Counted from the stretch's first letter, positions 18,750 through 60,925 are shown. The stretch is 64,000 nt of DNA from Parcubacteria group bacterium GW2011_GWA2_43_13 (GCA_000999025.1 LCFM01000004.1:1925-65924); one strand, 5' to 3'. Notes: generated by a model from the letters alone, not told the origin. Numbers and translations: made by a program.

Positions 18750-18820
18750 GTAGAGACGCAGTGATACTGCGTCTTTATTGAAATAAGACATGCCGGGGAC
18801 GCGTCTCTACAAACTATTCC
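18750..18820. repeat. palindromic element family A (gtagagacg..cgtctctac)
   Basis: tagagacgcagtgatactgcgtct..gacgcgtctctac, intergenic. Confidence 0.6.
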
Positions 18821-18853
18821 ACCATAACCCTAAAAAGAGTATACTACTATTAT

Positions 18854-19330
18854 ATGGAAACACGGGTAACCGCATTTGAATGGGATTTCCCAGAATTTGA
18901 AAAACACCAACACACGCTTGGGTGGTATATTGGCGCTGGCATTTTCACCGCTGCTCTCCTTATTTACGCGCTTTCTGATGGAAATTTTCTCTTCGCAATA
19001 CTCATTATCACCTTTGCCCTTGTTGTATTATTCCATAACCATACAGAGCCAATCCTTGTTCACTGCAAACTTGATAAGCATGGCATCCAAGTCGGGAATG
19101 AAATATTTGAATTTAAACACCTTTACCGTTTTTGGCTTCTGTACGAACCGCCCCAAGCTAAAAATCTGTACATTGAATTTAAAAACAAAGTAAAACCGCG
19201 TCTGCGTATTCCTATAGAAAATGAAAATCCGCTTTTGATCCGCGACTTTCTCCTTGACCATATCAAAGAAGATCTTGAGCGAGAGGATTTGCCATTAAGC
19301 GATCAGTTCAGCAAACTCTTGAAGATATAA
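18854..19330 (+). CDS. hypothetical membrane protein
   Basis: 158 aa with two N-terminal TM helices; followed by a terminator. Confidence 0.5.
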   Translation: METRVTAFEWDFPEFEKHQHTLGWYIGAGIFTAALLIYALSDGNFLFAILIITFALVVLFHNHTEPILVHCKLDKHGIQVGNEIFEFKHLYRFWLLYEPPQAKNLYIEFKNKVKPRLRIPIENENPLLIRDFLLDHIKEDLEREDLPLSDQFSKLLKI

Positions 19331-19351
19331 TCATGATATGATACTGTCGAG

Positions 19352-19370
19352 AGGGCTTTAAGCCCTTTTT
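19352..19370 (+). terminator. rho-independent terminator
   Basis: AGGGC-TTTAA-GCCCT followed by TTTTT directly after the 18854-19330 stop. Confidence 0.6.
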
Positions 19371-57560: not shown

Positions 57561-57644
57561 ATAAAAACCCACTGCCAAATATCAGTTTTCAGTTTTCAAA
57601 TATCAAATCCACCTTGGTTAAAAATTTAAAAACTAACATTTGGT

Positions 57645-58307
57645 TCACACGTTAATACTGCCTTGTCGTATCACCCCCACCCGATCCCCTATAACTTTCG
57701 CCAGAGTACTCACCTCGCCTTCATGCAACATTCCTCCATCAACAATCCCATCGGGTTGAATATCATGCCCTTCATACTGCGCTTGAATTTCATCTACAGT
57801 ATAACATGTTTTCATGCCTGTTACATTGGCAGACGGAGCTGTGATCGGCTTGCCTAATTGAGTAATAATATGTTGACAAACCTCGTTTGATGTCCAACGG
57901 ACGCCGATAGTGTTGTCTGCGAGGTTCAAATACGATGACAATAACCCTCCCTCACCTTCCCTTATGCGTAAGAGAGGGAACGCTCCCTCCCACTTTCGCG
58001 AAAGTGGGGGCTGGGGGGAGTTATTTCGCCTATAAAGCACCAAAGTCAGTGGCCCGGGCCAGTATTTTTGTGCTAATTCCAACGCCTTATCGGAAAACTC
58101 CGCATACCGCATCGCCATTTCCAAAGAATTCACCAATACCAAAATGGGCTTAGCTTCACTCCGCCCTTTGATTGTATAAATTTTTTGCACTGCCGTATCA
58201 TTCGTCGCGTCAGTGACCAGCCCATACGCCGTCTCCGTCGGCACCGCGACCACACCGCCATTTTGAATAATTTCCAGCGCCCGGACCTGCGAAATAATCG
58301 GAGCCAT
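57645..58307 (-). CDS. tsaC: L-threonylcarbamoyladenylate synthase (TsaC/YrdC/Sua5 family)
   Basis: VAVPTETAYGLVTDATNDTAVQKIYTIKGR YrdC motif; in-frame palindromic insert SPQPPLSRKWEGAFPLLRIREGEGG. Confidence 0.8.
   Translation of the reverse strand: MAPIISQVRALEIIQNGGVVAVPTETAYGLVTDATNDTAVQKIYTIKGRSEAKPILVLVNSLEMAMRYAEFSDKALELAQKYWPGPLTLVLYRRNNSPQPPLSRKWEGAFPLLRIREGEGGLLSSYLNLADNTIGVRWTSNEVCQHIITQLGKPITAPSANVTGMKTCYTVDEIQAQYEGHDIQPDGIVDGGMLHEGEVSTLAKVIGDRVGVIRQGSINV
57943..58020. repeat. palindromic element family B (compound), in frame inside tsaC
   Basis: ccctccctcaccttcccttatgcgtaagagagggaacgctccctcccactttcgcgaaagtggggg. Confidence 0.6.
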
Positions 58308-58324
58308 ATATCATCTTTCAATGT

Positions 58325-60925
58325 TTACTGCACCACCATATTGATTACTTTCCCCGGAACATAAATTTTTTTCACAACATCTTTGCCAGATATCCATTTT
58401 TGAATTTTGATATCCTGCAACGCTTTGATGATAGCTTCTTCTTCTGTTATATCTGTCGGTATTGCAATCTGCCCGCGAACCTTGCCATTAATTTGCACCG
58501 CGATGGTGATGGTTTCGTCTTTGATGAGTGCCTCATCGTACTCCGGCCATGGTTGGGTATCTAAATATCCTTCTTGATGAAGAACTTCCGACCAAATTTC
58601 CTGCGCGATGTGCGGGGCGAATGGAAAAAGGAGTTTAAGAAAAACCTCACCCCTACCCTCTCCTTGGAAAGGAGAGGGGGACGACGACCTCACCTCTCCG
58701 CCATCCGCCAGCTGGCGAAACGAACTCTCCTTGGAAAGGAGAGAGGGAACGCACGCCTCCCACTCATGCAAACAAATCATCAATGCGCTAATAGCGGTAT
58801 TAAACCGCATGTTTTCTATATCTTCGGTAACTTTTTTGATGGTTTTATGGAGGACACGCTCCCACCGCCCCCTAACCCCCTCCTCGGGCAGGAGGGGGAA
58901 CGCGACAGCTCCTTCTCCTAAAGTAGGAGAAGGATGGGATGAGGTCTGAAGATACAATTGGTATACTCTATCCAAAAATCTTCTCATCCCCACAATCCCG
59001 CGCGAAGCCCAGGGAAGCGCGTCTTCAAACGGCCCCATAAACATTTCGTACATCCGCACACTATCCGCGCCATATTCTTTTACCAGGTCATCAGGATTTA
59101 TCACATTACCAAGCGATTTTGACATTTTTCTACCATCTTCTGCGAGCACCAACCCTACATTACGTAATTTTATAAACGGCTCATCCCCAACTTCTTTGGG
59201 GATCATGCCATGATCAAACAACGCTTTGTGCGCAAATCGCGCGTACATCAAATGTAAAACCGCGTGCTCTGCTCCGCCGACATAGGTATCAACCGGCATC
59301 CATTGTTTGATTGCCTCTTGCGATGCAAATTCTTTTTCATTCTGCGGATCGCAAAACCGCAAATAATACCAAGCAGAACACATAAAGGTGTCCATAGTAT
59401 CTACTTCTCGCTTTGCAGTACCGCCACATTGCGGACACACGACGTTTTTTTGAAAATCTTTTGATTGCGCAAGTGGCGATTCGCCATGCGGTTTAAAATC
59501 AACATCAGTCGGGAGCATCACCGGCAACTGATCTTCTGGCACTGGTTGCTGGCCACACGTTTGACAGTAAACGATGGGGATTGGCGCGCCCCAGTAGCGT
59601 TGTCGTGATATTAGCCAATCTCGCAGGCGATATTGCGTTACCCGCTTACCACCAACTTTTTCTGTTATTTTCCACTTCGCCTCCTCGCTATTCATACCGT
59701 CGAATTCGGCGGAGTTGATCATGATTCCATCGCCCGTATACACCGTCGCTGTAGAGACGCTCCGTTGGAGCGTCTCACTGTCCGAGACGTCCCCACGGGA
59801 TGTCTCTACAACCGAACGCACAGGCAATCCATATTTCTCCGCAAACTCAAAATCCCGCTCGTCATGCGCAGGCACCGCCATAATCGCACCGGTGCCGTAT
59901 GACCCGATGACATAATCTGCCACCCAAATCGGAATTTCTTTGCCTGTCGCCGGATTGATGGCTTTCGCGCCCTTCAACTCAACCCCTGTTTTTTCTTTTT
60001 GCAGTTGCGTACGCTCAAGTTCTGTTTTCTTTTGCGCGTTTTCTACATACAGCCGAATTTCGTTGGCGTTCTGTAGAGACGGGGTTAACCCCGTCTCTAC
60101 AATGAGACGAACAAACTCATGCTCTGGCGCCAGCACCAAATATGTTGCCCCATATAACGTATCTGGTCTGGTTGTAAAGACGTCAATGTGATAATTGACA
60201 ACTGACAACTGACATTTGATAGCAAAACCGATCATCGCTCCCTCGCTTTTCCCTATCCAATTCTTCTGCATCACCCTAATCGGTTCTGGCCAATCAATTC
60301 TATCCAGCCCTTCAATCAACCGATCCGCATATTCGGTAATGTTCAAAAACCACTGTTCAAGCTCTCGCTGAACAACCTTATTGTTGCACCGCTCGCACGC
60401 GCCATCTATCACCTGTTCATGAGCAAGTACGGTCTGGCATGACGCGCACCAATTCACTGGCGCTTTCTTTTTATACGCAAGCCCGTGTTTATATAAAAAT
60501 AAAAACATCCACTGTGTCCAATGGTAATAATCTGGCGATGATGTATTCACCTCGCGGGACCAGTCATAACTCAACCCCAATGATTGTATTTGCCTACGAA
60601 ATATTTCAATGTTTGCATTCGTAGAAACCGCAGGTGGCACCCCTTGTTTAATGGCGTAATTCTCCGCAGGCAATCCAAACGCATCCCATCCCATTGGATG
60701 CAAAACACTGCGACCTTTCATGCGCAAGTATCGGGTATAAATATCCGTTGCTGTATATCCTTTAGGATGCCCAACGTGCAGACCGGCGCCAGAAGGGTAC
60801 GGAAACATGTCAAGGACATAACTATGAACACGTGCCAAATGACTATGAACATTTGACACGTTCCAAACGTTATCCTTCAGCCAACGCTCCTGCCACTTTT
60901 TTTCTATAAGTTGATGATTATACAT
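58325..60925 (-). CDS. leuS: leucyl-tRNA synthetase
   Basis: 866 aa from MYNHQLIEKKWQERW; HVGH-like and KMSKS motifs (KMSKSLGN); contains four in-frame palindromic element insertions. Confidence 0.9.
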   Translation of the reverse strand: MYNHQLIEKKWQERWLKDNVWNVSNVHSHLARVHSYVLDMFPYPSGAGLHVGHPKGYTATDIYTRYLRMKGRSVLHPMGWDAFGLPAENYAIKQGVPPAVSTNANIEIFRRQIQSLGLSYDWSREVNTSSPDYYHWTQWMFLFLYKHGLAYKKKAPVNWCASCQTVLAHEQVIDGACERCNNKVVQRELEQWFLNITEYADRLIEGLDRIDWPEPIRVMQKNWIGKSEGAMIGFAIKCQLSVVNYHIDVFTTRPDTLYGATYLVLAPEHEFVRLIVETGLTPSLQNANEIRLYVENAQKKTELERTQLQKEKTGVELKGAKAINPATGKEIPIWVADYVIGSYGTGAIMAVPAHDERDFEFAEKYGLPVRSVVETSRGDVSDSETLQRSVSTATVYTGDGIMINSAEFDGMNSEEAKWKITEKVGGKRVTQYRLRDWLISRQRYWGAPIPIVYCQTCGQQPVPEDQLPVMLPTDVDFKPHGESPLAQSKDFQKNVVCPQCGGTAKREVDTMDTFMCSAWYYLRFCDPQNEKEFASQEAIKQWMPVDTYVGGAEHAVLHLMYARFAHKALFDHGMIPKEVGDEPFIKLRNVGLVLAEDGRKMSKSLGNVINPDDLVKEYGADSVRMYEMFMGPFEDALPWASRGIVGMRRFLDRVYQLYLQTSSHPSPTLGEGAVAFPLLPEEGVRGRWERVLHKTIKKVTEDIENMRFNTAISALMICLHEWEACVPSLLSKESSFRQLADGGEVRSSSPSPFQGEGRGEVFLKLLFPFAPHIAQEIWSEVLHQEGYLDTQPWPEYDEALIKDETITIAVQINGKVRGQIAIPTDITEEEAIIKALQDIKIQKWISGKDVVKKIYVPGKVINMVVQ
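58645..58762. repeat. palindromic element family B, two tandem units in frame inside leuS
   Basis: cctcacccctaccctctccttggaaaggagagggggacgacg..ccgccagctggcg..ctctccttggaaaggagagagggaacgc. Confidence 0.65.
58858..58945. repeat. palindromic element family B (compound), in frame inside leuS
   Basis: ccccctaaccccctcctcgggcaggagggggaacgcgacagctccttctcctaaagtaggagaaggatggg. Confidence 0.6.
59751..59810. repeat. palindromic element family A, in frame inside leuS
   Basis: gtagagacgctccgttggagcgtctcactgtccgagacgtccccacgggatgtctctac encodes VETSRGDVSDSETLQRSVST. Confidence 0.65.
60073..60100. repeat. palindromic element family A, in frame inside leuS
   Basis: gtagagacggggttaaccccgtctctac encodes VETGLTPSL; identical core to the intergenic copy at 37413. 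Confidence 0.65.

Follow-up and report, generated by a model that had tools for sequence, protein, structure and literature searches.

The repetitive extragenic palindromes (REPs) and the REP-associated tyrosine transposases (RAYTs) tied to them offer the closest described parallels to the small palindromes considered here. For TnpA_REP subclass 2.4, Quentin et al. (2018, BMC Genomics 19:475, PMC6006769) describe REPs of a "double foot" type, whose 5' foot is GT[AG]G and whose 3' foot is C[TC]AC, together with enzyme motifs NH[IFV]H and YIxNNP, an abundance in Cyanobacteria and Bacteroidetes with other phyla represented here and there, and REPs lodged in tnpA_REP itself that leave its frame intact; RAYT group 4, the equivalent grouping, extends over 61 species and 17 classes (Bertels et al. 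2017). The GTAG-tagged REPs surveyed by Di Nocera et al. (2013, PMC3733652) are located for the most part 3' of genes and sometimes within them, form head-to-head dimers and fall into sub-families with complementary stem changes. Here we describe a family of palindromes, family A, in a stretch of 64,000 nucleotides (the window, throughout) from the groundwater Parcubacteria group bacterium GW2011_GWA2_43_13 (GCA_000999025.1, LCFM01000004.1:1925-65924), a member of the candidate phyla radiation (CPR); the leucyl-tRNA synthetase (LeuRS) of the window is 100% identical to that of this bacterium, and the contig matches GCA_001818105.1. We put at roughly 0.8 the probability that family A consists of double-foot REPs of the RAYT subclass 2.4 type, that is, small non-autonomous mobile hairpins, resident in a CPR bacterium. 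The element type and its in-frame behaviour have already been described, and what stands out is the kind of host and how many essential genes are hit; a literature search found no report of REPs in CPR bacteria, and searching with the literal repeat sequences gave primer and cloning matches only.

A single unit of family A reads T-GTAG-AGACG-(10-11 variable, self-complementary nt)-CGTCT-CTAC-A, a near-perfect palindrome of 28-30 bp, and units occur singly or as head-to-head dimers. The 9-mer GTAGAGACG has 10 exact matches on the two strands of the window against 0.12 +/- 0.33 in dinucleotide-preserving shuffles, an excess that makes the repeat family proposed in a first-pass annotation, drawn from the sequence alone, a genuine one. 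Each of the seven loci named there was found again by reading the sequence, with an inverted-repeat finder concurring independently, and the placement of copies both between genes and in frame within leuS was read directly. A one-mismatch scan of the window added an eighth locus, so that the window holds eight loci with about 12 hairpin units; by extrapolation, a genome of which the window is typical would have some 100-200 units per Mb. This additional copy (6708-6736) lies in atpB, the gene of the ATP synthase a subunit (6284-7105, minus strand), where the REP variant CCGTAGAAACG-ACCCCCTGGGG-CGTTTCTACGG (6706..6738; fold -16.1 kcal/mol, z -6.9) is in frame and encodes VETPQGVVST; its foot, GTAGAAACG...CGTTTCTAC, carries compensated G>A / C>T changes on both arms, with GAAACG replacing GAGACG.

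The GTAG...CTAC pair of feet is present in the singles at 37414, 60073 and 6708 and at the outer ends of the dimers. Four dimers, three in the window (18750, 41142, 59751) and one in a relative (contig L127, site B of leuS), share the layout GTAG-AGACG-hairpin-CGTCT(C)...spacer...(G)AGACG-hairpin-CGTCT-CTAC, each being two single-foot units set head to head with the GTAG feet outermost, and all four differ in inner stems and spacers; the unit that is repeated identically is the 30-nt single, not the dimer. Folded as single-stranded DNA, intact copies reach -12.6 to -20.1 kcal/mol (z -4.4 to -8). The earlier alternative of "simply a stable hairpin" holds as far as these strong folds go, but it is incomplete, since the copies are GTAG-footed REPs of a cross-phylum family tied to RAYTs. 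A scan of the window at Rfam gathering thresholds returned two tRNAs only, and the hairpins are covered by no RNA family.

Set beside the subclass 2.4 double-foot REPs, family A is alike in the feet on a long stem, in the phyla concerned, in the in-frame insertion into genes, including the transposase gene, and in the Y1 motifs of the associated enzymes. The match is one to the published description of the subclass rather than of the GTAGAGACG consensus to the published family consensuses, and family A differs in that its host is a small-genome CPR bacterium with no cognate RAYT in the DNA searched. With the GTAG-tagged REPs (Di Nocera et al. 2013) and the REPINs (Bertels and Rainey 2011) it shares GTAG beside a stem-loop, complementary stem variants and dimers with outer feet, and with the former also the placement mainly downstream of genes and sometimes inside them. 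In classical REPs, however, GTAG is unpaired and stands at one end, whereas in family A singles it stands at both ends and is paired. The dimers of single-foot units resemble REPINs in layout, but a REPIN is an inverted REP pair replicating as one unit, and the family A dimers all differ in their inner stems.

The same palindrome is spread widely across phyla. A scan of one genome per species (596 Gb) for the pattern GTAGAGACG-N(4-30)-CGTCTCTAC gave at least 120 loci, in Bacteroidota, Nostocales and other Cyanobacteria, Chloroflexota, Geobacter, Omnitrophota, Zixibacteria, Rhodothermales and others. The pattern left the gap free to vary from 4 to 30, yet 128 of the 138 matches listed are 28 or 29 nt long; by our own arithmetic, chance would yield about 200 matches of this 18-base pattern with its 27 gap lengths in 596 Gb, distributed evenly over the gaps. 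From the matches listed, 58 unique 28-mers from many phyla were taken as a sample for covariation. Across their inner 10 nt, standard pairs make up 90.7% of cells, whereas shuffling gives 52.7%, and the covariation score is 1.056 against 0.281, a value reached by none of 500 shuffles. All five inner pairs vary on both sides, with all four Watson-Crick types at most inner positions, and shifting the partner by one to three columns lowers pairing to 23-47%. In 44 of the 58 sequences complementarity extends even to the innermost pair, so that these are true palindromes, beyond mere stem-loops. Viral contigs carry the element too: at least 120 in IMG/VR (loci L140-L259) hold GTAGAGACG...CGTCTCTAC, with 127 of the 152 matches listed being 28 nt long, and no RAYT-like ORF (open reading frame) was seen in the 1.06 Mb flanking these palindromes. 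REPs can thus be carried by DNA that has no gene for the enzyme, and phages or prophages may act as carriers of these elements among hosts.

A link to a transposase emerges from the genome loci themselves. At seven of the 120 listed, the hairpin is inside a Y1 (HUH) transposase ORF or no more than about 300 nt from one; for a 0.6-kb gene present once in a genome of several Mb, our own estimate is about 0.2 in 120 random 8-kb loci. Six of the seven ORFs show NH[LIF]H ... YIxNNP; the ORFs match Pfam Y1_Tnp and NCBIfam REP_Tyr_transpos, and a profile built from them finds thousands of homologues, many annotated as "REP element-mobilizing transposase RayT". In three loci (L025, L088, L119) the hairpin is translated in frame within the Y1 ORF, as RRDAMHRVST or VETHGRASLQ, and the RAYT gene at L126:3178-3822 holds one REP inside it and another across its stop codon. 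This last gene belongs to a type I restriction-modification (R-M) operon, with hsdR on one side of it and hsdS on the other.

Within the window, leuS (58325..60925, minus strand, 866 aa) carries two family A inserts. At site A lies the perfect 30-nt double-foot REP TGTAGAGACGGGGTTAACCCCGTCTCTACA (60072..60101), encoding VETGLTPSLQ, and at site B a head-to-head dimer (59751..59809) encoding VETSRGDVSDSETLQRSVST. The translations given earlier for these copies, VETSRGDVSDSETLQRSVST and VETGLTPSL, are borne out, both being in frame, and at the level of sequence the enzyme appears undisrupted, the frame being open and HVGH, KMSKS, TTRPDT and AHDERD intact. Alignment of LeuRS orthologues, which the first-pass annotation had proposed with editing-domain or anticodon-binding loops as the expected positions, puts both inserts in the editing domain (PF13603, aa 221-423), in loops that are variable relative to 1H3N: site A about 20 residues past the TTRPDT motif, and site B past the AHDERDFEFA motif. 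An assembly artefact is rejected because five independent assemblies agree, their contigs matching the window at 99.9-100% identity and without a single indel; the identical LeuRS protein was read on 14 contigs from independent assemblies.

It could be argued that the leuS palindromes are ancestral LeuRS sequence that is palindromic by chance, with no insertion at all, and the closest relatives, P0002 (contig L127, 77%), P0003 (L128, 77%) and P0004 (69%), do have related sequence at both sites. More distant Parcubacteria and Thermus, however, have shorter, unrelated loops at both sites, the identical 30-mer recurs in a spacer between genes and inside genes other than leuS, and the peptide VETGLTPSLQ occupies site A in the window but site B in P0004. 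These non-homologous copies rule the idea out, and we regard it as extremely improbable. To judge from the alignment, the leuS inserts are old insertions rather than ancestral LeuRS sequence, because they are common to relatives at 69-77% and missing in more distant Parcubacteria. The earlier proposal had turned on the existence of further copies and on the inserts not being conserved LeuRS sequence; further copies exist, while the inserts do recur, in altered form, in the three closest relatives, and are absent from Parcubacteria farther away.

Relatives whose nucleotide identity to the window is about 79% also differ from it in occupancy, at both leuS sites, in ksgA and in the spacer 3' of ksgA. 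Site A (after APEHEF) holds the GGGTTAACCC unit in the window, a decayed unit or none in L127, the CCCCCTTGGGG unit in L128 and only ...TSLQ in P0004. Site B (after FEFAxKY..VV) holds a dimer in the window, a dimer with other inner stems in L127, an unrelated repeat in L128 and a single VETGLTPSLQ in P0004. ksgA is free of inserts in the window and in L127 and has gained 8 extra codons in L128, and the spacer downstream of it contains a degenerate copy in the window, an intact REP in L127 and none in L128. The 30-mer, for its part, recurs unchanged. The identity noted earlier between the cores of the 37413 and 60073 copies spans the full 30 nt (37413-37442 against 60072-60101), and a metagenome scan for the exact 30-mer gave nine stretches, equal to six distinct loci, none overlapping the window, in a collection that is incomplete for the 30-mer, the window's own contig being absent from the matches. 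On two of these metagenome contigs the exact 30-mer is in frame, in a Mur ligase gene and in that of topoisomerase I (topA). With the two window loci and the six others, the identical 30-mer is present at no fewer than eight distinct loci, which, as far as sequence can tell, indicates recent spread; one unchanged variant at eight or more places, together with the differing orthologous sites, argues for copying to new sites and not inheritance alone. Frame-keeping insertions are found in all in leuS (two sites) and atpB in the window, in ksgA, Mur ligase and topA in relatives, and in the RAYT genes of L025, L088, L119 and L126.

The reading of the foot in three frames accounts for the form of the encoded peptides. 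The frames give VET, (x)RD or a TAG stop within GTAG, and two peptide forms, VET...SL and RD...VST, recur because the third frame contains the stop. Since the element is physically linked to RAYT genes in other phyla, we infer that a RAYT is present and active in this genome and that it works on single-stranded DNA. The model borrows from the IS200/IS605 family, in which a Y1 HUH enzyme recognises a hairpin in single-stranded DNA ("peel and paste" TnpA(Y1)); unlike family A, which is 28-60 bp, non-coding and dispersed, the hairpins there are the ends of an autonomous insertion sequence. The hairpin would extrude in single-stranded DNA, for example at a replication fork, where the RAYT would recognise it together with the GTAG foot, cut and rejoin the strand via a phosphotyrosine intermediate, and allow the copy to land at a new single-stranded site. 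A copy landing in a coding region would survive only if its net length kept the frame, as a 30-nt unit with its T and A flanks would by adding 10 codons, if it used a stop-free frame (VET...SL or RD...VST, the third meeting the TAG in GTAG), and if it fell in a permissive loop.

Several observations weigh against family A being RAYT-borne REPs of this kind. The RAYT ORFs of the genome loci score mostly under the curated cut-offs (17-23 bits against 23 for Pfam, 50-67 against 80 for NCBIfam), as a divergent subclass interrupted by inserts might be expected to, yet this is not a clean family call. The sole RAYT with a CPR label that a profile search brought up (P0150, Paceibacterota, on L126) is nearest to Bacteroidales proteins, at 78-83% identity, so that the label is doubtful, mis-binning may be at work and no CPR RAYT is established. 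No RAYT was found in the 64-kb window by tblastn with seven RAYTs (best E = 0.14), by regular-expression search or by Pfam annotation of ORFs, nor in the nine contigs that carry the 30-mer (about 60 kb; tblastn with twelve RAYT proteins), nor was one seen in the relatives L127 and L128. Five near-identical strains revealed no REP insertion polymorphism among them. Moreover, symmetry up to the very centre is not required by hairpin stability alone.

Such points would suit orphan or fossil REPs, in a lineage that once had a RAYT, or took up REP-bearing DNA, and has lost the enzyme since, the copies being homogenised by gene conversion or quasipalindrome template switching instead of transposition. 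The missing RAYT in the window and related contigs, the many copies on viral contigs free of RAYT-like ORFs, the age of the leuS inserts at sites A and B, common to relatives at 69-77%, and the decayed copies at 25575 and 55366 with the half copy at 37470 are all in keeping with this, and the symmetry to the centre fits correction by template switching. Gene conversion, however, cannot make new sites, and the identical 30-mer stands at eight or more non-homologous loci; close relatives differ in occupancy; and the absence of a RAYT is weak evidence when at most about 15% of a genome of about 1 Mb has been inspected. Overall, orphan REPs appear unlikely here, and mobile double-foot REPs remain the preferred account.

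Between genes, family A occupies five loci. The dimer at 18750..18810, GTAG+AGACGCAGTGATACTGCGTCT (18750-18774) and AGACATGCCGGGGACGCGTCT+CTAC (18786-18810), has tRNA-Ser (minus strand) on one side and the gene of a 158-aa membrane protein (plus strand) on the other; the 158-aa ORF was tried as a RAYT candidate and set aside, being a membrane protein without an HUH motif. The neighbouring tRNA-Arg (19443-19516), which adjoins tRNA-Ser(GCT) and this dimer, has the anticodon GCG, not the usual bacterial ACG. A single REP, GGAGACGCCCCAGGGGGGCGTCTCTAC (25575..25602), whose left GTAG foot has decayed, follows a 432-aa gene and precedes a DsbA-like gene, and its inner sequence is found also in frame inside ksgA of the relative L128. 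Farther along, a perfect 30-nt double-foot REP with the sequence of the site A copy in leuS (37413..37442; fold -14.6 kcal/mol, z -8) is accompanied by the half REP CCCCGTCTCTAC (37470..37481), which overlaps the 3' end of a 1192-aa gene. One frame of the foot reads TAG, which is why a half copy is able to end a gene, and the GTAG of this one, on the minus strand, supplies the TAG (37478-37480) at which the 1192-aa gene stops. Insertion of the half REP may therefore have set the C-terminus that the protein has today. The dimer GCAGAGACGCGACGATGCCACGTCTCTAA plus AGACGCCCCATCGGGGCGTCTCTAC (41142..41198) is flanked by a 3202-aa gene and the 1192-aa gene, and the degenerate REP GGAGACGGGGTAGAGCACCATCTCTAC (55366..55393), which folds weakly (z = -1.4), is found between ksgA and a 238-aa gene, nested in a longer inverted repeat of another family (55335-55434).

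Four of these five loci lie just 3' of a stop codon, with genes of the same strand on either side, a placement like the REP distribution in PMC3733652, and together with the strong folds it could suggest that the host keeps the hairpins as stabilisers or terminators of transcript 3' ends, or as protein-binding sites, and not as selfish DNA. Yet the copies within leuS, atpB, ksgA, Mur ligase and topA cannot terminate, and most copies have no T-run after the hairpin: on direct reading none follows those ending at 37441, 41198, 18810 and 55393, and one starts 7 nt after 25602. Intrinsic terminators, with a T-run directly after the hairpin, are rejected on this ground. The same 9-bp foot across phyla and the linkage to a transposase point rather to a sequence-specific enzyme, and selection by the host would be compatible with mobility, not exclusive of it; as a replacement for mobile REPs, we hold it to be improbable. 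A miniature inverted-repeat transposable element, with DDE-type terminal inverted repeats and target-site duplications, was likewise considered and rejected: direct reading found no flanking direct repeats at 37413-37442 or 60072-60101, and the element is the hairpin only.

The arms of family A contain the type IIS-like site GAGACG/CGTCTC, and the first-pass annotation had raised a possible relation to the R-M system of the window. Were the arms kept for this site, as something that the system targets or avoids, one could cite its presence in every arm and a total of GAGACG twice the expectation (33 matches in the window against 16.3). That excess is owed entirely to the elements, however, 17 sites being within or adjoining them and the 16 elsewhere matching the 16.3 expected, so that the bias outside the elements that was to be looked for does not exist. 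The system itself is MjaI-like, with a CTAG-type endonuclease (16472-17236) and an N4/N6 methylase (17151-18467), and includes no GAGACG type IIS enzyme. Furthermore, the conserved unit is the 9-mer with its GTAG foot and not the 6-mer, the atpB copy has a compensated GAAACG, and the same palindrome is found in many phyla. A role as R-M target is effectively refuted and, in our estimate, hardly conceivable.

Given the very small genomes of CPR bacteria (Patescibacteria) and their essential genes, which are usually single, a selfish hairpin in frame in leuS, atpB, ksgA, Mur ligase and topA would be significant, and it parallels the Rickettsia palindromic elements in an unrelated lineage with reduced genomes. 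Those elements, whose description is credited to Ogata et al. in 2000, are said to measure about 100-150 bp. Like family A, they are selfish palindromes that sit in frame within essential genes, in genomes that are likewise reduced, and that give the protein an extra peptide loop but do not inactivate it. The CGTC-tagged REP superfamily has no known transposase. Family A differs in being 28-60 bp long and GTAG-tagged, whereas the Rickettsia elements that are equated with REPs are CGTC-tagged and alphaproteobacterial; the two so equated are RPE-4 and RPE-6, with CGTC REPs (PMC3733652). The host range of RAYT subclass 2.4 REPs would be widened as well, with an identical 9-bp foot from Cyanobacteria to Bacteroidota to CPR, and on viral contigs. 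In such genomes VET....SL, RD....VST and extra loops of aminoacyl-tRNA synthetases should be read as REP footprints and not as functional domains, and REP-derived loops can mislead alignments and phylogenies.

In a Falkowbacteria contig (Ga0210057_1001272; L139:3001-5925, protein P0008), leuS as assembled is joined in frame to a complete Y1 transposase immediately ahead of TTRPDT of the editing domain; the insert runs to about 165 codons, scores 63 bits against Pfam Y1_Tnp and has the motifs DHVHII and YVQNNP. An unrelated 30-nt double-foot palindrome, GTTAGGTTGGGTTTTAAAACCCAACCTAAC, stands at 3751-3780, with a second copy at 4330-4359 at the site A loop. Because site A holds family A here and an unrelated palindrome with an upstream Y1 fusion in Falkowbacteria, the editing domain could be a recurrent landing site. 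A bolder view would have double-foot REPs actively colonising essential CPR genes, with that domain as a recurrent target, spreading without a resident RAYT or via one fused to a host protein, and owing their central symmetry to symmetric copying (hairpin-templated synthesis or template switching) rather than to selection for stability; we offer it as a speculation that is quite unlikely to hold in full.

Beyond family A, the window has a GC content of about 43% and nearly every gene on the minus strand, with ORFs assigned by Pfam to ATP synthase, SerRS, a type IV secretion-like cluster, giant surface proteins, KsgA, Sua5 and ComM. Two other palindrome families are present. One, CCTCTCC-N7-GGAGAGG, has three matches against 0 expected (2122-2142, 50858-50878, 58657-58677), with one copy inside the ATP synthase gamma ORF; the copy at 58657-58677, perhaps with a 19-nt copy at 58725-58743, is in frame in the C-terminal part of leuS and gives SSSPSPFQGEGRGEV, and relatives (P0003) have related peptides elsewhere in their LeuRS. 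The other comprises longer inverted repeats built on GAATCTAC / GTAGATTC, with seven matches against 1.4 expected, located at 1744-1821, 6165-6289, 36670-36750, 55335-55434 and 60991-61016, and these too carry GTAG/CTAC.

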